Shown here: positions 8,893 through 62,284 of the stretch, piece after piece | Position numbering within the stretch: position 1 is the first letter of the stretch | Layout: each line of letters opens with the position of its first letter | DNA from: Candidatus Methanophagales archaeon ANME-1-THS | Lineage (GTDB): Archaea; Halobacteriota; Syntropharchaeia; Alkanophagales; Methanospirareceae | DNA: 64,000 bases | NCBI GenBank assembly: GCA_004212135.1 | Contig: RXIE01000127.1 | Location: 1,565-65,564 of the forward strand | Reading direction: 5' to 3' | Program-made: the position numbers and the translations under genes | Notes under the pieces: generated by a model | What the model saw: the letters and a program-made list of their open reading frames with translations, nothing else | Databases searched by the model: none | What the model was told of the DNA's origin: nothing

Positions 8893-9426
8893 TTGGCAGG
8901 TCCTTTTGAAACGAGAAGTATAAAAAGAGTAATTAACGATGTGGAAAATGTTGCTAAAAATTATGACCTCGTGAATTTTCAACTCAAAGGGTTTGGTTAT
9001 TTCGATAACCCCAATGGCAAGGTTATTTTCGCAGATATTGAGCCCTCAAAAGAACTTGAAGAACTGCGGTGGGAATTAGCAACGAGATTAACGAAGTATG
9101 CTGAACTCAAAGAATGGGATAAAGATAAAAAATTTTCATTTCACGCCACAATCGCTTTTAAGGACATTGATAGGAAATTCCCTGACATTTGGAGATACCT
9201 GAAAAGCAAAGAAGTCCCAAACATCAACCAATATCTCTTGAGAATAACGATTTTAGGAAAAGGTCGTAGAATAGTGTGCGAATATGACCTCATGCTTAAG
9301 AGGATATTAAATCGAAGACAGGCTTTAAGCAAGAAAATATGGATAATAACCAAATTCATATTGAGATTAAAGTTGTTCCGTAGAAGGTTGGTGGGTGCGA
9401 TTAAAAAGATATTCTGGTGGTCGTAA
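8893..9426 (+). CDS. 2H phosphoesterase (LigT-like 2'-5' RNA ligase family) with uncertain or non-canonical start
   Basis: Second HxTx motif (FHATIAF) lies inside the ORF. The first HxTx motif (SHVTLAGPF) is encoded in-frame upstream of the listed TTG start, after a TAA at 8803-8805. No ATG exists in that stretch. AT-rich context. Confidence 0.45.
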   Translation: MAGPFETRSIKRVINDVENVAKNYDLVNFQLKGFGYFDNPNGKVIFADIEPSKELEELRWELATRLTKYAELKEWDKDKKFSFHATIAFKDIDRKFPDIWRYLKSKEVPNINQYLLRITILGKGRRIVCEYDLMLKRILNRRQALSKKIWIITKFILRLKLFRRRLVGAIKKIFWWS

Positions 9427-9540
9427 TGATATACCTCATAAGCGATCTGCATTTAAAAGAGTGAAAAACGAAGAGATGAGGTAAGATTTTACAAAATAAA
9501 ATTGAAGGTTTAAAGCTCACTGACAGAATTAACAGAAATT

Positions 9541-10408
9541 TTCAGTTATATACACCTTATCATCGTTTGAAATAGCTACACCAATCCCTTCGCTCATCCA
9601 ATAAGTGGTTAAAATATTCTGTCTATGTCCTTGGCTATTCATCCATCCTTGAACAGTGTATTCAGCTATTTCCTCCTGAGTGTTCCAATCATAAGAGGGA
9701 ACTCCATCCTAGTAAGTTACTGAACTGTATAAATTGTTTTGAAAAATATTCTCAGCACCCATATAGATGTAATTTCCTACACATACTTCACAATTAAAGC
9801 CTTCTTGTTGGTATCTATAAGAAAAATCGTGACCTTCTGGATCACTATGACTAAAATAGTTCCTATTAGCCATGTCTTGACTGTGCTTTCTCGCAATGAT
9901 ATTCAATGTATCATTCCATGATAAGGCAGGCAATCCTCGTTTATCTCTTTCTTCGTTTATCAGATCGTGAATTTGTTTTTCTAGTTCGAGGATATTGATT
10001 TCTGGTTTTGATGAAGTCACAAGAGGTGAATAATCGCCTGATTCGTTCCACCAACTACCAATATCTTTACCTACACTTTGAAAAGACGATTGAATTTTGC
10101 CAGATTGGTAAGCAGAATATAAAAAATAACCAGCAAGTGCTACAACAGCTAAAATTGTCAGGGCAGTTATAGCTTTTTTAATTTTCTTTTCTCTTTCTTT
10201 TCTATATTTGTATCTCAGTTTTCTATAAACAATAGTGCCTTGACCCCCAAGATGTTCAATGTAATATCTGTAATGTTCACCTTTGAGATAGAGGTCCCAT
10301 CAGCGACCAGTTTTTTTTCGCTATCTTATATGCCTTATTATAAACCCATTGGGGTACTTCCTTTTCATCTACCTCTTCCCAACCAGCTAAATCAATTCTT
10401 CTCGGCAT
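9541..10408 (-). pseudogene. CAP/SCP/PR-1 domain protein gene, disrupted by an in-frame TAG at 9706-9708 and a probable frameshift near the T8/A8 homopolymer at 10311-10319
   Basis: Reverse-frame translation reads …NYFSHSDPEGHDF…SSVTY*DGVPSYDWNTQEEIAEYTVQGWMNSQGHRQNILTTYWMSEGIGVAISNDDKVYITENFC*. The CAP motif GWMNSxGHRxNIL lies downstream of the stop. A TM anchor and an ATG-initiated N-terminus (MPRRIDLAGW…) sit upstream in a different frame. Confidence 0.55.
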
Positions 10409-36819: not shown

Positions 36820-37311
36820 ATGTCTAAAATTCTCGTCGCGGGTATTGGAAATAAGTATTATGGGGACGACAGCTTCGGTCCACGGGTTATCGAGGCGTTG
36901 ATCGCGAGGAACCTACCTGAGGACGTGGAAGCAAGGGATGTTGGTCTCTGTGGTTCCACACTGGCACCTGACCTTGGTGACTATGAGCTTGTGATCTTTG
37001 TTGATGCGGTTATGAAAGGCGGGAAGCCTGGAACTATCTATCGAACGGAAATAAAAGCAGATCAGGTGAAGGAACTGAGACCTGAAGACGTGGTGCAGTC
37101 CTTCACCTTCAGTATCCATGAGACCGGGCTCGAACAACTTCTCTCCTTCGCTAAGAAGATTGGGACTCTTCCTCCTACTACCATTGTCTTCGGCTGCGAG
37201 ATCCACGAGATCACACTGGGTGAGACACTGAGCCGAGCGGTTGAGGCTGCGGTGCGTAGTACCGTCGAACTAATTTTTACTGAGCTCCAGCGGTACCGCG
37301 AACGGAAGTAG
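36820..37311 (+). CDS. Hydrogenase maturation endopeptidase (HycI/HybD family)
   Basis: MSKILVAGIGNKYYGDDSFGPRV… with the conserved D…H signature. Confidence 0.8.
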   Translation: MSKILVAGIGNKYYGDDSFGPRVIEALIARNLPEDVEARDVGLCGSTLAPDLGDYELVIFVDAVMKGGKPGTIYRTEIKADQVKELRPEDVVQSFTFSIHETGLEQLLSFAKKIGTLPPTTIVFGCEIHEITLGETLSRAVEAAVRSTVELIFTELQRYRERK

Positions 37312-39093
37312 CTCGTGCTTCACGACCCGAGAGCCCATATGCACGTGGATTGCACACCCCAAACACGGATCGAAGCTCCTTATGGTTCTCACGATGTCAA
37401 TGCCCTTCCACGCCGCAGGGTCGCCCGCTTCGGTGATGGGCGAGTGGATGAGTGCTTCTTCGTACGGTCCCGGGTGTTCCTCAGGATCCCTACCCGAGGC
37501 GTTCCACGTTGAGGGTGCGTGGTACTGATAATTATGGATGACTCCGTTCTTCATGACGCACCAGTGCAGGCACGAGCCCCGCATAGCTTCGACCGCACCA
37601 AACCCGATTCCTTCTTCAGGCTTCACGTACGGAGTCCAGACCGCTGTTTTCCCCGCTTTCATGAGTTCCAGAGCCTTCATTACCAGTTTCGAGACGCAAT
37701 AAGCGGTGTAGGCATGATAATATGCCCTCGCTCTCACTCGTTCGACCGTATTTGGCTTCTTTGGAATCTTCCATTCGAAGTCCATCTTCTCCGCGTACTT
37801 GAAACCGGGTATAACAGCCGCAGGAAGCCCAAATTTGAGGCTCGATCCGGTAGACTCAGGCACCAGTCCTGCTTTCGCCGTCACCCACATTCGTGCAAGC
37901 GGCCCCAATTCAACCACATGGTTCGCGCCGTCGCCCTTCCAGTGCCACCATCTCGGTGAGGTAACCCACGTGTATTTAGAATTCCACTTTCCAGCCTCTC
38001 CAGGTTCCGGGATCGTGCGCTTGTTCCACGGATGCTCTAACGCGATTTTATTACCTGCGGGATCAGTCGCGATTTCTTGCTCCCAATTACTCGAATACCA
38101 CCCTCTCCCAACGAACTCTCGAACGCCCGCATTTATCTCAACGAGATCAGTCGTGACGAGATTACCATTCAAAATAACCCCGGGGGAGACCATTCGCTTT
38201 CGGCCCCAATCGGTCATCTCACTATACACCGCAGAATATGCCTCAGGATCGTTATAGCCACCAACAGCGAAGAGGTTTAGCGGTCTCGCACCGACATCCT
38301 CATATCCCTGTGCGAGCACGAAATCGAGCAGATCGTCTGTTGCGCTGACCAGTTCCTTGGTAAAGGCAATGTGCCGCATGAGAAGCGTGAGATACGATGC
38401 GATATCAGACATCGATAGGTTGATCTTTGCAATGCCACCAGGAATAAAGGAGTGAACGTGGGGATGCTTTGCACCGAAGATCGCAGCCATATCATGTCCT
38501 GCTTTCTGAACCAGAAGTGACCGGAGATAGAGCTCGCCCGCCAATGGGTTGAGTGCGGTCATGATATCAGCTATCGTTGCAAAGCCATGGACAGCACTCC
38601 TCTCTGCTTTCGTCTTCTGCGCCTCCGTCCACCAGGCAGGGTTGAACTTCTTCACGGCAATCTCGCTGTAGTCCGGTCCTTCAAGGTTGAGCACACCGAC
38701 CTCAGCATCATACAACTGCTCTGCACCGTGGATGAAATCTCTCAGCACAACACCCATGGGGGGCGGTGATACTCCATATACCTGGTCGCACGCGGTTATG
38801 GATGAAAAGCCATGCGGCACGGGACAAACACCGCAGGCTCGCTGCGTAATCATCGCCGCTTCGGATGGCTCTCTTCCCAGAAGGATAATCTCAAAACCAC
38901 GGAACATTGGACTATACGCGTACGCATCGCTGATCCTCCTTGCACCGATATCGAGCTTCGCATGAACACCCAAATGCCCCTCAATCCTCGTTACGGGCTC
39001 TATAGATATCTCTCTCTCGCCTCCTTTCGCTTCGGGCGCAGGTGCTGCCTCCGCCTCTTTTTTGCCGAGTATCTTCTCCAACAGTTTCGTCAT
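37270..39093 (-). CDS. [NiFe]-hydrogenase large subunit
   Basis: L1 motif RACGVCPVPHG. C-terminal DPCLGCAIHV followed by a cleavable extension. 607 aa. Confidence 0.9.
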   Translation of the reverse strand: MTKLLEKILGKKEAEAAPAPEAKGGEREISIEPVTRIEGHLGVHAKLDIGARRISDAYAYSPMFRGFEIILLGREPSEAAMITQRACGVCPVPHGFSSITACDQVYGVSPPPMGVVLRDFIHGAEQLYDAEVGVLNLEGPDYSEIAVKKFNPAWWTEAQKTKAERSAVHGFATIADIMTALNPLAGELYLRSLLVQKAGHDMAAIFGAKHPHVHSFIPGGIAKINLSMSDIASYLTLLMRHIAFTKELVSATDDLLDFVLAQGYEDVGARPLNLFAVGGYNDPEAYSAVYSEMTDWGRKRMVSPGVILNGNLVTTDLVEINAGVREFVGRGWYSSNWEQEIATDPAGNKIALEHPWNKRTIPEPGEAGKWNSKYTWVTSPRWWHWKGDGANHVVELGPLARMWVTAKAGLVPESTGSSLKFGLPAAVIPGFKYAEKMDFEWKIPKKPNTVERVRARAYYHAYTAYCVSKLVMKALELMKAGKTAVWTPYVKPEEGIGFGAVEAMRGSCLHWCVMKNGVIHNYQYHAPSTWNASGRDPEEHPGPYEEALIHSPITEAGDPAAWKGIDIVRTIRSFDPCLGCAIHVHMGSRVVKHELLPFAVPLELSKN

Positions 39094-39094
39094 C

Positions 39095-40210
39095 TTATAT
39101 CTTCCTCCCCTTTCGTTCCCCCTCTTTCATCGGTTGCTCAAATTCCGCAAGGAGCTTAGAGACCACCGGTTGCCATTCATCTTGGTGCTCTTTGAGATAA
39201 TTGTCTAAACCCTCGATAAGAGCCCCTAAACCCTCGAGTAAATCAGGTACCAACGGCGGTATCAAGTTTATTATAGGCTTAACTCGTGTGTATCCCATCA
39301 AAGCATGAGCCAATGTGCCCTTGATATTCTCAATAATAAATGGCTCAACGGGTGGCTTAGCGAAGAATGGAGAGGTTGGCGGGTCTGGGAAGTCCGGATG
39401 GGTGCAGCCGAAACAGGGGACACCTGTTGCGGTACAGCCACCGTATCCATCAGCCCACGATCTATTATTGCAGTTTGAAACAATACCCTTGCAGCCTACC
39501 GCACCGAGACAGCCAGTTTCACCGAAACTATGGGCGTCGACACCCGCAGCGTAGAACCCACAGATCGGGCAGAGTTCATGCATCGTGTAACCGAAGAGTT
39601 CAACAGGTCGATGCCATTCATCCAGCTCTGGAAGAGGCGCTAATCCCCGTGCTGCAAGAACCGCTTGACCCAGCACCTGAACGATGTTATCAGGTCTGGG
39701 CGGGCAGCCAGGGATGCAGATAACCGGAAGCCCTAAGGCTCCTTTCCAGTCTTTTCCTAAGTACTCCAAAAGTCCCTTTGCACCGGTCGGATTAGGCGTA
39801 CCCGCGGGGATACCACCGTACGCGGCACAGGTACCGATCGCCACAGCAGCCGCACACCGCTTTGCGAGACTGTCAATCACATGGGTCAGTGTAAGCAGTT
39901 TCCCGTCATGCTCGCCAATCGCACAGAAAACCCCTGGTGATGCCTTCGTCTCGTCAGGAATAGATCCTTCAAGAATCAAAACAAAAGGATCATACTTCCC
40001 TTCCATAGCATCAACGAGAACCCGCGATGCATCCTCGCCCCATTCGAACATCAAGGTTGGATGGAATACGAGTTTTAGTCCACCAAGCCCTGGAACAGCT
40101 CCGGTAACCACATCTATAAGCGTTGGGTTGCTTGCCTGCTTGATCGAGATGGTATCGCCAGCACAGTCCTGCCCTTCAAGCCATATCAAGTTTATTTTCT
40201 CAAGGCTCAT
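39095..40210 (-). CDS. [NiFe]-hydrogenase small subunit (no Tat signal; proximal-cluster motif DCAGD instead of the canonical CxGC)
   Basis: N-terminal LIWLEGQDCAGDT. Further Cys clusters (…GTCAAYGG…, CPICG…CLGAVGCKG…CFGCTHP). No RRxF twin-arginine motif. Confidence 0.85.
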   Translation of the reverse strand: MSLEKINLIWLEGQDCAGDTISIKQASNPTLIDVVTGAVPGLGGLKLVFHPTLMFEWGEDASRVLVDAMEGKYDPFVLILEGSIPDETKASPGVFCAIGEHDGKLLTLTHVIDSLAKRCAAAVAIGTCAAYGGIPAGTPNPTGAKGLLEYLGKDWKGALGLPVICIPGCPPRPDNIVQVLGQAVLAARGLAPLPELDEWHRPVELFGYTMHELCPICGFYAAGVDAHSFGETGCLGAVGCKGIVSNCNNRSWADGYGGCTATGVPCFGCTHPDFPDPPTSPFFAKPPVEPFIIENIKGTLAHALMGYTRVKPIINLIPPLVPDLLEGLGALIEGLDNYLKEHQDEWQPVVSKLLAEFEQPMKEGERKGRKI

Positions 40211-40942: not shown

Positions 40943-41695
40943 ATGATGCTCGATCCGCGTTTAAGCATTATTGATACGCGATTGGCGGGAATAAAGCGAC
41001 TGATCGCGGTATCTGGCGGTAAAGGTGGTATTGGCAAGAGTGTAATCGCCTCGATGCTCGCAGTAACCCTGTCGCGATTGGGTTACCGGGTCGGGCTGCT
41101 CGATCTAGATCTCTCTGCACCCTCGACGCACGTGATACTGGGCGTAGCAGATGGGTATCCGAAGGAGGAGAAGGGAATTGTTCCACCTGAGGTTCATGGC
41201 ATCGCCTATATGAGCATCGTGTACTTCACCGGCGACGAGCCCACTCCCCTCCGCGGTACTGATATCTCAAATGCGCTGCTCGAATTGCTCGCAATTACCC
41301 AATGGGGTTCGCTTGACTTCCTGATTGTCGATATGCCACCGGGGATTGGAGATATAGCAATGGATGTGATCCGGTGGTTGAAGAAGGCTGAATTTCTCGT
41401 CGTGACCACCGCTTCACGAGTAGCCCTGGAAACGGTGAAGAAGGTACTAAAAATGCTCAGAGAGTTGCATAGGCCTATTATCGGCGTTATCGAGAATATG
41501 AAGCTGCGCGAGTCCCCAGTGGTGAACGAGGCGCTCAACGAATTCGAGGTGCCTCTGCTCGGCGCGATAACCTTTGATAAGACCCTTGAGGATTCAATCG
41601 GGGATGTGGACCGGTTATTAAGAAGCGAGGTTGCCGCACGGCTACACGAGATTGTGCTGAACACCTCGGGGTTCAAGCTGGAGCACGGCAGGTAA
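40943..41695 (+). CDS. Mrp/MinD-family P-loop ATPase (probable HypB-type nickel-delivery ATPase or Fe-S carrier)
   Basis: IAVSGGKGGIGKSVIASML… Mrp/NBP35-like Walker A, immediately after hypA. Confidence 0.7.
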   Translation: MMLDPRLSIIDTRLAGIKRLIAVSGGKGGIGKSVIASMLAVTLSRLGYRVGLLDLDLSAPSTHVILGVADGYPKEEKGIVPPEVHGIAYMSIVYFTGDEPTPLRGTDISNALLELLAITQWGSLDFLIVDMPPGIGDIAMDVIRWLKKAEFLVVTTASRVALETVKKVLKMLRELHRPIIGVIENMKLRESPVVNEALNEFEVPLLGAITFDKTLEDSIGDVDRLLRSEVAARLHEIVLNTSGFKLEHGR

Positions 41696-41703
41696 TGAAT
41701 GGT

Positions 41704-42141
41704 TCAGTTCATCCTCCGATTTATAGCCAGTTCCAGAGCTTTTATTCTCTCACTCTCGCCTTTCAAATCCTTTATCAACATCTCAAATTTTCTAAGGTCT
41801 AGGTTAATCACTTTATGTAACTCTTCGCTATCATCTGGTAAGTTATACCGGCTTATATCCAAATCTGCCTCCTTTGTAGCCTTCAATACCTACTCCTCCA
41901 ATCTTGGGCACAGGATAATTAAATCGTTGTTCTTGGCATTATCGTTCAATATCTTTAGTTCACAATCAGATAGATTTTCCTTCGTCTGCAACTTTTTCAA
42001 ATAAGGAGGCTGGACACTGAAAGGGTCTTCATCTATCAATCCGGTGCAATTTTCTCGTTTTGCCAATTGTTTACAAACTTCAGGTTTTCCTCCCAGATGG
42101 ATAACCTGTTTCTTTGGTAATCCTAACGTTTTTACTAACAC
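41704..42141 (-). pseudogene. Small partner gene of the ABC-ATPase, two ORF pieces in the same frame separated by one in-frame TAG (41890-41892); Toprim-like EGxxE…DxD-type motifs
   Basis: ORFs 41890-42141 and 41704-41886 share a frame with a single TAG between them. GTG and TTG starts. Sequence …QVIHLGGKPEVCKQLAKRENCTGLIDEDPF… AT-rich island. Confidence 0.35.
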
Positions 42142-43138
42142 AGAATCTGGTTTGCACTCGGTATAAATCTTTCTTCAGTTCTAAGAATCTCTCAATGTCG
42201 AAGAAAATGTCTATTCCCATCTCCATTATCTCTTCCAGTTCCTTCTCGCTCAAGAGTTTTACTTTTGTCTGGTAGTCTTCAAAATAAGTTATGAAAATAG
42301 CTACTTCGTCTTTGTGTGCTTTTTCAAGGATTGAAAGGAGAAGATAAGGATTGTGCGTTGAAATGAAATATTGGTTCTTGTTCTGGTCCAATGCTATTCT
42401 CTCAGCTAGAAATTTTGTGTAGTAAGGAAAGGCATGAGCTTCTGGTTCTTCAAACACTAATACAGAATCTCTATTAGAATCAATTGCGGTGAGATAAAAA
42501 ACGATTCTTTGAAGGGTGTCAGAAGTTAAGGAATAAGGGTAGGAAACAAGGATATCTTTATGATACTTTAAAACTTCAATTTTATTCTCCTGAGGTTTAA
42601 AAACTAATTTCAATCCAAATGGCTCGAAAATTTGACTTGCAGTAGCTTTCAATTCCTTATGAGTCATGAGAATTGCTAACAGGTTATCTCCAGAAGGAGG
42701 TAAAAGAAATTCTAACTCTTTGCTTGGGAAATCCTTCCTTACGGTAAATCTATAGGACTTAGGAAGGTTCAGAGAACCAGAGTATGATCCTCCTCCACTA
42801 CCCTCGTAGTCATAATCAAAGGAAAAAAGTTCTGATTCCTTTTCACGACATCTACCTTTAAACCTTCCTTGCTCAAAATTAATCTTCAAAATTTTATCAT
42901 CTGCTTTTATTGTTATACTTTTATCCAGATTTTCATCGTAAAATAGATTGCTCATAACCTCAAATCTGACAAAGTCTTTAATGCGGAGTCTATGTTCTCC
43001 GGAGGACATTACTCCTAAACTCTCCAAAATATTTGATTTTCCGGTATTTGGTTCACCTATAAAGAGATTTATCCGCTTGCAATCCATCTTCAAGTGCTTT
43101 ATTGACTTAAAATTCTCAATCTCCAGAGTTTGGATCAT
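42080..43138 (-). CDS. ABC-type (AAA_21/AAA_15-like) ATPase, OLD/PARIS-AriA/Septu-PtuA-like; 3' end overlaps the partner gene in another frame
   Basis: Walker A IGEPNTGKSNILESL, signature-like LTSDTLQRIVFYL, Walker B VLVFEEPEAH, H-loop ISTHNP. Sits in an AT-rich insertion inside the hyp cluster. Confidence 0.7.
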   Translation of the reverse strand: MIQTLEIENFKSIKHLKMDCKRINLFIGEPNTGKSNILESLGVMSSGEHRLRIKDFVRFEVMSNLFYDENLDKSITIKADDKILKINFEQGRFKGRCREKESELFSFDYDYEGSGGGSYSGSLNLPKSYRFTVRKDFPSKELEFLLPPSGDNLLAILMTHKELKATASQIFEPFGLKLVFKPQENKIEVLKYHKDILVSYPYSLTSDTLQRIVFYLTAIDSNRDSVLVFEEPEAHAFPYYTKFLAERIALDQNKNQYFISTHNPYLLLSILEKAHKDEVAIFITYFEDYQTKVKLLSEKELEEIMEMGIDIFFDIERFLELKKDLYRVQTRFCVSKNVRITKETGYPSGRKT

Positions 43139-43308
43139 TTGATAACCTCCTTATTGTTCTTTGTTTTACTTTCTTTATAAATTCTTTACACCTCATAGCC
43201 TACATCGAAATGATGTTTGTGCCACTTATTGGTCCTTTCAGGCAAGGGATGAAACAAGGTCTCGAAGATTAACGTCTAAACCCCCCAAACACGCGATCAG
43301 CGTATGAT

Positions 43309-44391
43309 TCAACAGATCCTCGGCACGGGATCACCGATCGGCGTCTCTACAATCCGCATGCCGCCAACCCGGGTCTTCATCACCACGCCTTTGAGCTCGT
43401 TCGTCGCGGTACCGATGATCGCGGCATCTTTGCCCTTCTCGGTTCTCCTTAAAGCATCAAGCACCTCATCGGCTTTCTCCTTTACGACGCCGATGACCAC
43501 CTTGCCTTCATTACCGATCTCCAGAGGGTCTATCCCCAGCATCTCACAGGCACTTCGAACTGATTCTCGTATCGGAATTGCGTCCTCCTCAATCATGATG
43601 CCCACGTTCGACTTCTCACTGAATTCATTGAGTGTATTCGCGAGCCCGCCCCTCGTCGGGTCTTTCATGACAACCACACCACCAACCACTAAGAGCTCAT
43701 GAATAAGCTTGTTGAGCGGTGCGATATCTGATCGGAGCTCAGTATCAAACTCGAATCCTTCCCTGAAGGAGAACAGTGCGACACCATGATCCCCGAGGTA
43801 ACCAGAGACGAGTATCTTATCACCAGCCCGGAGATTCGAGTCCACCAACCAGTTCGTATCTAATTCACGATACCTTCTCACTTCCTCCAGGTTTGTATCC
43901 AGAGCCGCTGTTCGCTTACCGATCGCCGAGGTATTCACCACGATCTTCTCCAGAGCACCCTTCTCCACAACCTTTGTATCGCCCGTAACAATTGAGACCT
44001 CCGCCTCGTCACAGGTCCGCTTCATACTCGCCAGAATGCGCTCGAAATCGCTGACCGGGAGCCCTTCTTCGATTACAAAGGCCGCGGATAAGCAGAGCGG
44101 CTCGGCACCCATGACCGCGATATCGTTCACCGTACCTGCGATCGCGAGACTCCCGATATCACCGCCGGGGAAGAATAACGGTTTTACGGTGTGCGAATCG
44201 GTCGTGAAGACGATATGGTCAACGACCGCCGAATCATCCAGAGCGTTCAATGGCACTTCGACCTCTATCTCTCCTCTATCAGTACCCCGCACCTCGTTGA
44301 AATCGAAGTAGCGGAGCACGAGCGTGAGCAACTCACGCATCCCTTCACCGCCTGCTCCATGCTCCAGCTTTATACCGCCTTTCATCACCAT
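43309..44391 (-). CDS. hypE: Hydrogenase maturation factor HypE
   Basis: AIR-synthase-related fold ending with the HypE-specific C-terminal PRIC motif. Confidence 0.9.
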   Translation of the reverse strand: MVMKGGIKLEHGAGGEGMRELLTLVLRYFDFNEVRGTDRGEIEVEVPLNALDDSAVVDHIVFTTDSHTVKPLFFPGGDIGSLAIAGTVNDIAVMGAEPLCLSAAFVIEEGLPVSDFERILASMKRTCDEAEVSIVTGDTKVVEKGALEKIVVNTSAIGKRTAALDTNLEEVRRYRELDTNWLVDSNLRAGDKILVSGYLGDHGVALFSFREGFEFDTELRSDIAPLNKLIHELLVVGGVVVMKDPTRGGLANTLNEFSEKSNVGIMIEEDAIPIRESVRSACEMLGIDPLEIGNEGKVVIGVVKEKADEVLDALRRTEKGKDAAIIGTATNELKGVVMKTRVGGMRIVETPIGDPVPRIC

Positions 44392-60252: not shown

Positions 60253-61011
60253 ATGAACCACAAGCTCACGCTTCGCAATGTCTCGAAGACGTATAATTCG
60301 GAGGAAGGCGAGATAAAGGCAGTGGAGCATATCAATCTCGAAGTCAAGCCGACCGAATTTTTATGCATCGTCGGTCCCTCGGGCTGTGGCAAAACGACCT
60401 TGCTCAGAATGGTAGCGGGGTTAGACTATCCAACCAGTGGCGAGATTATCTTAGATGGCGCGCACGTGAGCGGTCCTTCTCCGGACAGAGGGATGGTCTT
60501 CCAGGAATTCTCGTTATTCCCGTGGAGAACCGTCTTGAAGAATGTGGAATTTGGACTGGAGATCCGCGGGGTGCAGGAGAGACGAAGAATCGCAGAGCAG
60601 TACCTGGAGCTTGTCGGTCTCCTGGACTTTAAAAATTGTTACCCGCAGGAACTTTCAGGCGGCATGAAGCAGCGAGTAGCGATCGCACGAGCGCTTGCCA
60701 CCAACCCTTCTGTGTTATTAATGGATGAACCATTTGGCTCGGTGGATGCGCAGACGAGGAATGTGCTGCAAGAAGAGCTGCTGAGAATCTGGGAGAGAAC
60801 CGAGAAGACCATTATGTTCGTGACCCATAGCGTTGATGAAGCGGTATACCTCGCGGATCGAGTTGCGGTGATGTCCGCACGACCCGGTCGAATCATCCAG
60901 TGCATGAAGATTGACATACCACGACCCCGAAAGCGAACGAGCGTAGAGACAAATGTGATTCGAGAGAAGCTCCTTACCCTCCTGGTTTCACAGTACCCAC
61001 GAATAGGCTGA
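60253..61011 (+). CDS. ABC transporter ATP-binding protein (SsuB/TauB-like)
   Basis: [25 protein letters not shown] motifs. Confidence 0.85.
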   Translation: MNHKLTLRNVSKTYNSEEGEIKAVEHINLEVKPTEFLCIVGPSGCGKTTLLRMVAGLDYPTSGEIILDGAHVSGPSPDRGMVFQEFSLFPWRTVLKNVEFGLEIRGVQERRRIAEQYLELVGLLDFKNCYPQELSGGMKQRVAIARALATNPSVLLMDEPFGSVDAQTRNVLQEELLRIWERTEKTIMFVTHSVDEAVYLADRVAVMSARPGRIIQCMKIDIPRPRKRTSVETNVIREKLLTLLVSQYPRIG

Positions 61012-61030
61012 GGTATCAATGGCTTATGCT

Positions 61031-61352
61031 TTAAAATACCGTTGGTATAAATCTAAATCTCCATGGTACTCGCCTCATATGTTCTTCATATTCTTTTCCA
61101 AATCTCTCTTTCATTACCTCCTCCTCCTCTCTAATTGCCGTTAATATGGTAAGTATAACAAAAATAATGACTGGAATTAAAATCCACACGATTCCCCACA
61201 TAAATGCAAATCCGAAGTACAGAAGAATTAAACCAGGGTATAATGGGTGTCGCATCTTTGAATAATTCGCCTCAGTTATTAGTTTCTTAATTTTCTCAGA
61301 TTCCTGATGTGCTTCTTTATGGATTTTATGGGAATATTCATGAATGATTAAT
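61031..61352 (-). pseudogene. C-terminal fragment of an isoprenylcysteine carboxyl methyltransferase (ICMT)/phospholipid methyltransferase-family membrane protein
   Basis: …YSKMRHPLYPGLILLYFG…EEEVMKERFGKEYEEHMRRVPWRF. Only about 100 C-terminal residues are in frame after a TGA. No N-terminal TM region or start codon. AT-rich context. Confidence 0.4.
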
Positions 61353-61630
61353 CCTCATAGAGGTGTTTATCCAGCAGACTATTCTTTCTCATATTCAAAT
61401 CACTTCATTATCAATTGGCTTCGGGTGATTTCGGACAACTTCGGTATATACGACATCAATCGTATATTTTCCCAAATTGGAATGACATCCGAAACTTACT
61501 TCGTATATACCTCCCTTTAGCTGATTATTACTCTTCATCTCCTTCAATCCCATCTCTAAATCTACGCGATTTCCAGTCGTGATTTTTCCAATCGAAGTTA
61601 AAAAGTTACTCTCTCCACGCCTCGCGCCAC

Positions 61631-62284
61631 TCACTCCAGTGGTATAGCGGTCTTCTCCTTCTCAATCTCTCGTGCTTTCTTCTTTATCCGCACACTGAGT
61701 ACCCCGTTTTTATAGGTTGCTTTTGCCGTCTCGGGCTTTACCAGCGTCTTGAACGCGACTTCCTTAAAATATCGTCGCCCATTTTCCGTCCTTATCTCTA
61801 ACGTGTCATCAGCAGCATGCAACTTTATATCCTTCTTCTCGACACCAGGCAGTTCAGCGACAACTTCGTACGAATCACCATGATCAATCACATCGACGAG
61901 CGGTTCGCGCTCACCGTTCGGAAAGGGCTCGATTCGTCTATGCGACGCTTTTATATTCCCAAATTCCTTTATCTCCGGCTCTTTACCCGGCTCTTTGGTG
62001 TAGGAGAACCCGTAAATAAACGGGCCATATCGTTTAACCTTACCTTCCGGCGTCTTCTCCTCGGTCATAAAACCCCTGAGTTCCTCCGGCATTCCCTCTT
62101 CTAACTTCCTCGCCATCTCCTCAAACGGGTCTCCAACCCATCCTCCTCTGTCTTCCTGGTCCTTCTTCGCCATCCGCGAGAAATTCTCCCGGGATACCGC
62201 CGGCTGGTTGCTCAAATCCTCGAAGATCCGCTCCATGTACCACTCGAGCAGATCAAAGATCGAGGGGCGCTTTCTCTTCTCCAT
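61631..62284 (-). CDS. Hsp20/alpha-crystallin small heat-shock protein with an N-terminal extension
   Basis: C-terminal …DDTLEIRTENGRRYFKEVAFKTLVKPETAKATYKNGVLSVRIKK alpha-crystallin domain. Confidence 0.75.
   Translation of the reverse strand: MEKRKRPSIFDLLEWYMERIFEDLSNQPAVSRENFSRMAKKDQEDRGGWVGDPFEEMARKLEEGMPEELRGFMTEEKTPEGKVKRYGPFIYGFSYTKEPGKEPEIKEFGNIKASHRRIEPFPNGEREPLVDVIDHGDSYEVVAELPGVEKKDIKLHAADDTLEIRTENGRRYFKEVAFKTLVKPETAKATYKNGVLSVRIKKKAREIEKEKTAIPLE

Follow-up and report, generated by a model that had tools for sequence, protein, structure and literature searches.

A low-GC ABC-ATPase gene pair, probably a cassette of antiviral defence type, inserted once between hypE and mrp and decaying in the archaeon ANME-1-THS

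We analysed a stretch of 64,000 nucleotides, here called the window, from Candidatus Methanophagales archaeon ANME-1-THS, one of the anaerobic methanotrophic (ANME) archaea (contig RXIE01000127.1, positions 1,565 to 65,564). In the window, an insert between hypE and mrp of a hydrogenase-maturation (hyp) gene cluster carries a gene for an ATP-binding cassette (ABC) ATPase, followed by a gene for a small partner protein. This insert is probably a horizontally acquired two-gene conflict cassette of the antiviral defence type, which landed once at this site and whose effector was knocked out in ANME-1-THS; the defence role of the pair is one that we infer by analogy with known systems, whereas the data show the insertion itself, the gene family and its coupling, the genomic contexts, the partner pseudogene and the mosaic ATPase. 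An initial annotation, made from the sequence alone, had suggested a two-gene defence module with a Toprim- or DUF4276-type partner. In kind this was right, as to a defence-type ABC-ATPase pair, its foreign origin and its decay, whereas the Toprim/DUF4276 label is unproven. Outside CRISPR and restriction-modification, little of archaeal immunity has been charted, and to our knowledge ANME archaea cannot be cultivated as pure cultures. The features discussed below are as follows.

40943..41695, plus strand: host gene mrp next to the insert, encoding the ParA/NUBPL-type ATPase of the hyp cluster; 8 nt separate its stop from that of the partner gene
41696..43308, no strand: inserted cassette from mrp stop to hypE stop, 1613 bp, about 36% guanine plus cytosine (GC), site empty in relatives
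41704..42170, minus strand: partner pseudogene (family length about 155 amino acids, aa), start codon lost, internal stop
41890..41892, minus strand: TAG in place of a family-invariant Trp codon (TGG); W94 is invariant in 74 of 74 relatives
42080..42169, minus strand: non-native 29-aa ATPase tail and stop, the ATPase stop codon being lost
42169..42170, minus strand: site of a 1-nt deletion (AAATGAT in relatives, AAAGAT in the window), by which the ATPase TGA and the partner ATG are both lost
42170..43138, minus strand: ABC ATPase, native coding part of 323 codons, all 43 family-invariant residues kept
42480..43020, minus strand: hypervariable, recombinant centre of the ATPase, from Walker A to the signature motif, DNA identity to locus L010 42-68%
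43174..43181, minus strand: TATA-like box TTTATAAA, putative promoter, 35 nt upstream of the ATPase ATG
43309..44391, minus strand: flanking host gene hypE

The cassette fills exactly the gap between the mrp stop at 41695 and the hypE stop at 43309. The identities of the flanking genes were supported by Pfam (HypA PF01155, 8.8e-22; Mrp/ParA PF10609, 1.6e-54; HypE AIRS and AIRS_C). The GC content of the two module genes is 36.0%, compared with 51.1% in each 3-kb flank and 49.9% in the whole window, and it falls to 33-38% across the insert in 400-nt windows. Together with the nearly empty spacer in relatives described below, this step bears out the initial claim that an AT-rich foreign insert splits the hyp genes, for which a GC profile had been suggested as a check. 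A search of the insert borders for terminal repeats, direct or inverted, found none; thus, the insert bears no transposon signature. On the minus strand the insert holds a 352-aa open reading frame (ORF; 42080..43138), which is 100% identical to ANME-1-THS protein EFT35_06530, and, in another frame, two ORFs (41890..42141 and 41704..41886; 83 and 60 aa) that share one frame and are parted by a TAG at 41892..41890. The remaining ORFs inside the insert are short antisense artefacts. A GGAGG at 43146-43150 and the box TTTATAAA lie in a leader of about 50 nt, which is kept in the archaeal copies L004 and L094.

The distribution of the insert was surveyed by scanning the window HypE against one genome per species, which gave 80 loci, whose neighbours were identified by tblastn. 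The module was present at one of the 80 hypE loci, L010, which is the same contig as L004, from the metagenome-assembled genome (MAG) Kmv05, and whose HypE is 91% identical to that of the window. The ATPase and partner genes were also found between hypE and mrp in L005, an independent Logan assembly of SRR11917416. In seven loci (L013, L014, L017, L018, L023, L025, and L026), with HypE 78-83% identical to the window protein, the converging hypE and mrp genes are separated by a spacer of only about 40-110 bp. The synteny comparison called for in the initial annotation thus gave empty sites in other ANME-1 relatives, and instead of a pair conserved in the hyp clusters of the clade at native GC, a finding that would have refuted the initial interpretation, there was a single close relative with the pair at this site, also at low GC. 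The window and L010 have the mrp-side junction in common (TGAACCATTCA in the window and TGAACCCTTTCA in L010); this indicates one ancestral insertion, and the cassette probably entered the spacer in the common ancestor of ANME-1-THS and Kmv05.

In other relatives, the same spacer holds different cargo: RadC, a winged helix-turn-helix (wHTH) protein, and an N6/N4 DNA methylase (L015:6936-10110), a cytidine deaminase and an IS66 transposase fragment (L012:9084-10276), or a UPF0175/PIN toxin-antitoxin pair (L020:9087-9850). Since the cargo differs, the spacer is a recurrent landing site for accessory genes and looks like an insertion hotspot. The genes upstream of hypA also differ between the two module-bearing genomes. 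In the window, genes for the small and large subunits of a [NiFe]-hydrogenase lie there on the opposite strand (37270-40210), whereas Kmv05 has hypD, followed by hypC and hypF (L004:7721-8806); thus, the hyp/hydrogenase neighbourhood has been rearranged between them. Five contigs in the survey (L011, L014, L016, L017, and L018) encode HypE 82-88% identical to the ANME-1 protein in the same Ham1-hypE-mrp-hypA order, in MAGs labelled Nitrosotalea, Desulfobacteria, Bathyarchaeia, and Halobacteria. Such ANME-1-like contigs are probably mis-binned or mislabelled.

The decay suspected in the initial annotation was borne out when the window was aligned with L004, L002, and L006. The 1-nt deletion at the gene junction removes both the ATPase stop and the partner start, so that the partner lacks a start codon ahead of the nearly invariant E5, C6, and D9, and the Trp codon has become TAG. 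The partner gene in the window is, judged from these two lesions, a pseudogene, and with its effector so damaged the system would be non-functional in ANME-1-THS. With read-through of the stop, the partner sequence retains 79% identity to the intact protein of L004; thus, the decay is recent. The junk tail aside, the ATPase ORF remains intact, and that only the presumed toxic component was lost agrees with the cost that such effectors carry. Decoding of the TAG as pyrrolysine was considered and ruled out by the Trp codon (TGG) in all 74 relatives and by the lost start. The overlap of the ATPase 3' end with the small gene, noted earlier, is present in the window, but its length is an artefact of the deletion, because relatives have a 4-nt overlap (ATGA). 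As for annotation, the 'hypothetical protein' of 352 aa is the ATPase extended by a frameshift, the ORFs downstream are one pseudogene, and the hyp locus is unaffected.

The ATPase has a complete set of motifs, with Walker A GEPNTGKS at 43034-43057, the signature-like SLTSDTLQ, Walker B VLVFEEPE with the catalytic Glu at 42440-42463, and STHNP with the H-loop His at 42353-42355. Pfam assigned it to AAA_15 (2e-20) and AAA_21 (3.7e-10). Its AlphaFold2 model has a predicted local distance difference test score (pLDDT) of 76, and only 25-43 for residues 323-352. In Foldseek the model matched Rad50, SMC, RecN, the retron-IA ATPase, TsOLD, GajA, and PtuA (E 1e-9 to 1e-12, template modelling (TM) score 0.4-0.5). 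Motifs and head fold thus place the protein in the ABC ATPase superfamily with Rad50/SMC/OLD-like heads. The ABC-ATPase call of the initial annotation stands, but not the length of 352 aa, since the native protein has 323 residues and the rest is the frameshift tail. PADLOC gave only partial or low-scoring matches of 40-74 bits (AriA, AbiLi, NsnB, HEC-01A/02A, GajA, and Old), and the NCBIfam matches (Eco8 effector, MAD3, RecF, Rad50, and PtuA) were all far under their cut-offs. In line with the initial annotation, the Pfam, PADLOC, and Foldseek results put the protein in the class of ABC ATPases that OLD, PARIS, Septu, and Gabija-type systems employ. The chain ends about 60 aa past the H-loop, with no extra effector domain; as judged from sequence and model, the ATPase is a generic minimal ABC head outside any single named family. 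At E<=1e-3 there were 3208 homologues. The best 120 of these are 308-333 aa long (nearly all 317-333), with about 91% query coverage and 61-84% identity, and come from Methanophagales, Syntrophoarchaeum, Methanosarcinales, Asgard, Aenigmatarchaeota, and Hydrothermarchaeota among the archaea, and from Chloroflexi, Desulfobacteria, and WS2. Two WS2 members, P0089 and P0100, are publicly named 'DNA replication and repair protein RecF'. This appears to be a misannotation through the shared N-terminal P-loop/SMC_N region (RecF 31.5 bits, cut-off 172).

The ATPase gene is a mosaic. Between the window and L010, DNA identity is 80-93% in hypE and mrp, 88-89% in the first approximately 120 nt of the ATPase gene, and 88-95% from the 3' end of the ATPase gene to the middle of the partner gene, whereas it drops to 42-68% from about 43020 to 42480. 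At the protein level, identity to the same-site orthologue P0067 is 0.97 for residues 1-40, 0.49 for residues 41-225, and 0.88 for residues 226-322, whereas identity to P0002, from an unrelated metagenome, is 0.82, 0.85, and 0.85 in the same segments. That the nearest relative changes from segment to segment, and that the central DNA has almost reached saturation, indicates that an allele was replaced by recombination and that point substitution was not the only process. Column entropy of the ATPase family is highest at residues 80-140, downstream of Walker A and ahead of the signature motif. This insert has been proposed to set trigger specificity in related defence ATPases (bioRxiv 10.1101/2024.01.29.577857), and by analogy the variable insert may be the sensor of the invader.

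In every locus examined, the partner gene directly follows the ATPase gene and encodes 151-157 aa. The two genes overlap by 4 nt (ATGA), except for 1 nt in the provirus discussed below and a 2-nt gap in L092. A family profile built from 74 partner sequences (search at E<=1e-3) recovered at least 1263 clusters at 50% identity, and the 150 listed are mostly 145-175 aa. The AlphaFold2 model of the partner (pLDDT 93, predicted TM score 0.87) has a beta-alpha-beta-alpha-beta unit, a beta-hairpin, and a further strand, followed by five helices, giving an alpha/beta domain at the N-terminus and a helical domain at the C-terminus. The conserved residues (E5/C6/D9, H25/K29, D47-E48-D49-P50, and P89/E92/W94) are located at strand ends, the acidic and basic ones (E5/D9, H25/K29, D47-E48-D49, and E92) at the C-terminal ends; E5 is nearly invariant, and D47 and D49 are invariant. 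On inspection, the model has the layout of a Toprim domain, with E5 after strand 2-4 and D47-E48-D49 after strand 43-47. A Toprim-like metal-dependent nuclease is our leading guess for the partner from its motifs, with about an even chance of being right.

The contexts of relatives are of the defence type, with embedding beside DUF1156 and DUF499 genes and with restriction-modification and toxin-antitoxin genes as neighbours. Ca. Syntrophoarchaeum has a DUF1156 methylase gene on one side of the pair and a DUF499 ATPase gene on the other, a setting that is an Hma or 'BREX-related type 1' system. Pairs of an ABC ATPase and a nuclease have been described inside Hma/BREX-related systems, some shown to be anti-phage and others predicted as back-up effectors (bioRxiv 10.1101/2024.01.29.577857; PMC12839542). 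Beside the pair in Ca. Desulfofervidus auxilii (L092), a remnant of 62 aa of the methylase C-terminus (58% identity; L092:6824-7009) and the first 47 codons of the DUF499 gene (45%; L092:8470-8595) are left, both closest to the intact genes around the Syntrophoarchaeum module. It seems that in Desulfofervidus the cassette moved with, or outlived, an Hma/BREX-related system. Carriers of the module include syntrophic partners of one another. In a Chloroflexi lineage the pair adjoins an MmeI-like type IIG restriction-modification gene, in one 2.6-Mb genome it stands after two Uma2 genes and before purL, with a BsuBI/PstI restriction-modification system about 3 kb away, and in another archaeon it lies between trpA and an NAD kinase gene. 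In 8 independent hosts the GC content of the module is 5-13 points under that of the flanks, and it follows that of the host, with 26% where the host has 30% and 50% where the host has 57%. The pair is also carried, as gp15/gp16 (L097:5364-6805), by the provirus Geoglobus ahangari pleomorphic virus 1 (GahPV1, BK065157.1). In GahPV1, an integrated pleolipovirus, a wHTH regulator gene stands on either side of the pair and a RelE toxin gene is close by, and the partner is 45% identical; the GahPV1 paper gives no discussion of gp15/gp16 (PMC10919331).

One possible mechanism, by analogy with PARIS, Septu, AbiL, HEC-01 to HEC-03, MAD3/MAD4, and Menshen, is that in intact copies the minimal ABC ATPase, translationally coupled through ATGA to the 155-aa partner, would form oligomers that keep the partner inactive. 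A component of the invader would be recognized by the variable insert that separates the Walker A and signature motifs, and an ATP-dependent change would then release or activate the partner as a metal-dependent nuclease. The active partner might damage nucleic acid and abort the infection.

Several results weigh against this reading. The window partner and its 74 relatives matched no model of Pfam, PADLOC, PHROG, or NCBIfam at threshold, and the partner profile had 0 matches among PDB sequences. In Foldseek, the best E value of the partner model was 0.13 in PDB and 0.03 in BFVD, with TM scores of at most 0.35. In hhalign, the partner reached 0.1% probability against a shallow P2-Old Toprim profile (10 usable sequences from two IMG/VR scans, the last homologue search giving 5 proteins), and the alignment to a single sequence was negative too. 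Furthermore, some copies stand among housekeeping genes only, with no defence neighbours, the module was not found among PLSDB plasmids, and a pattern scan of IMG/VR yielded no copy either, and the lesions in the window come from one MAG assembly. By sequence and by fold, Toprim homology of the partner is thus not statistically supported, and what is left of the 'Toprim/DUF4276-type' label is a resemblance of motifs and a sub-threshold match to MAD4; since no nuclease family or solved fold matches significantly, nuclease activity is a guess from motifs. Weak matches of the partner to Csa3, Thiaminase_I-like_N, and 3-methyladenine glycosylase, as well as that to MAD4, were judged to be noise or sub-threshold.

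An unlikely alternative is that the pair is a selfish addiction cassette, similar to a toxin-antitoxin system, in which one protein would be a toxin (the partner, or else the ATPase) that the other neutralises, and which would persist and spread for its own sake and not to defend the host. A tiny two-gene operon with translational coupling would suit this, as would lone inserts among housekeeping genes (trpA and NAD kinase, Uma2 and purL, hypE and mrp), the toxin-antitoxin pair in the same spacer of L020, and the inactivation in the window of only the presumed toxic partner. However, this class of ABC ATPases is known for sensing or regulation in defence systems rather than for a role as antitoxin, embedding within a methylase/DUF499 system fits a back-up defence (PMC12839542), and the recombinant variable insert suggests an arms race with an external target. 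Addiction and defence are not mutually exclusive. We consider it similarly improbable that the partner is a non-enzymatic adaptor or a DNA-binding regulator, consisting of an inactive Rossmann-like domain and a helical domain as in the NsnC inPIN of Menshen, with the ATPase or an unlinked protein as the effector. The partner of Menshen NsnB does employ an inactive Rossmann-like adaptor domain (PMC12065111), NsnB is the PADLOC model that aligns best with the ATPase over the full length, the partner consists of helices throughout its C-terminal half, and the failure to match any nuclease family or fold would be expected. However, the near-invariant acidic residues E5, D9, D47, E48, D49, and E92 cluster at the ends of strands in the manner of metal-dependent nucleases, the pair has no conserved third gene beside it, and the ATPase has no additional domain that could be the effector.

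A host accessory factor of hydrogenase maturation, acting as a second NTPase of the hyp cluster, would explain why two ANME-1 genomes have the pair between hypE and mrp, but a hydrogenase-related role was rejected on distribution and is very improbable, because the other ANME-1 relatives with contigs spanning the site have no module there, the pair occurs in unrelated contexts across many phyla and in a virus, its GC is foreign, and its partner is pseudogenised in the window. That a foreign AT-rich fragment was mis-joined into the contig by assembly or binning is scarcely conceivable; although the GC step is sharp at both borders and the source is a MAG, the same insert and mrp-side junction occur in the independent MAG GCA_014859735.1 and in the Logan assembly of SRR11917416.

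The preferred reading, a defence-type cassette, can be set beside several named systems. The pair resembles PARIS in being a two-gene operon of an ATPase and a small effector that is sometimes virus-borne, in the E...DxD-type pattern of the partner, and in the matches of the ATPase to AAA_15 (2e-20) and to PADLOC AriA PDLC02979 (5.6e-21). It differs in the length of the ATPase (about 323 aa rather than about 500), in the extent of the AriA match, whose best stretch aligns only residues 1-111 with profile positions 1-87 of 373, and in the 155-aa partner, and neither the window partner nor the 74 family members matched DUF4435 or AriB. The Hma-embedded HEC-01/02/03 (ABC ATPase with TOPRIM, NERD, or PIN) and the OLD-ABC back-up effectors embedded in BREX-related DUF499 systems share their genomic setting with the Syntrophoarchaeum pair, between the DUF1156 methylase and DUF499 genes, and with the Desulfofervidus pair, beside remnants of both, and the ATPase partially matched HEC-01A and HEC-02A (1e-14 to 1e-15). 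However, these A-protein matches are partial, no HEC B model was among the PADLOC matches of the 74 partners, and most copies, including that of the window, are outside Hma. The MADS system likewise has an ATPase and a small Toprim protein (MAD3/MAD4) as a pair in a methylation-based system; MAD4 is DUF4276, classed as Toprim (PMC12065111). The N-terminus of the module ATPase matched MAD3 (5e-8), and 4 of the 74 partners had weak collinear matches to MAD4 (best E 0.017, P0240 residues 25-122 with profile positions 51-143), but the scores are low (MAD3 32.4 bits, cut-off 420; MAD4 13.5, cut-off 160) and Pfam DUF4276 was not matched.

AbiL has a short ABC ATPase of similar length (AbiLi, 1.9e-16), and Menshen NsnB was matched over nearly its full length (1.1e-15; 1-296 with 1-316 of 345), but the partner matched neither RloB/AbiLii nor NsnC, and no DUF262 NsnA gene is nearby. 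With OLD and Gabija the ATPase shares the ABC head fold in Foldseek (TsOLD 6p74, 5e-10; GajA, about 1e-9), and the partner has E-x-K-x-D, G-K, and D-x-D in the same order and at similar spacing as the P2 Old Toprim VEGKTE...DGKG...DCD. In contrast to these systems, the ATPase and putative nuclease are separate proteins, with no fused Toprim and no GajB helicase adjacent. Septu differs in that the partner has no HNH or PtuB match, and PtuA scored 19.8 bits (cut-off 500).

Beyond the single cassette, we tentatively suggest that the approximately 155-aa partner may represent a new effector fold or family and, with the 323-aa ATPase, a new and widespread defence system, given the number of partner clusters. 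Archaeal viruses might carry such a system, members of anaerobic alkane- and methane-oxidising consortia (ANME-1, Syntrophoarchaeum, and Desulfofervidus) might exchange it, and recombination of the ATPase insert might re-assort its specificity. The cassette is an abundant, uncatalogued pair of ABC ATPase and presumed effector that crosses domains in anoxic sediments, syntrophic partners included, and at 1.45 kb it is a compact candidate for heterologous testing. It also offers a natural example of insert swapping in a presumed sensor, and a dated effector loss at a defined insertion hotspot within a metabolic gene cluster.

Three other patches of the window are low in GC against about 50%: 9001-10000 (35%), 1001-2000 (39.5%), and 61001-62000 (41%). 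These may be additional foreign islets. In the patch at 9001-10000, one ORF of 177 aa has an HxT-type 2H-phosphoesterase-like motif, and another ORF, which is truncated, is CAP/SCP-like.

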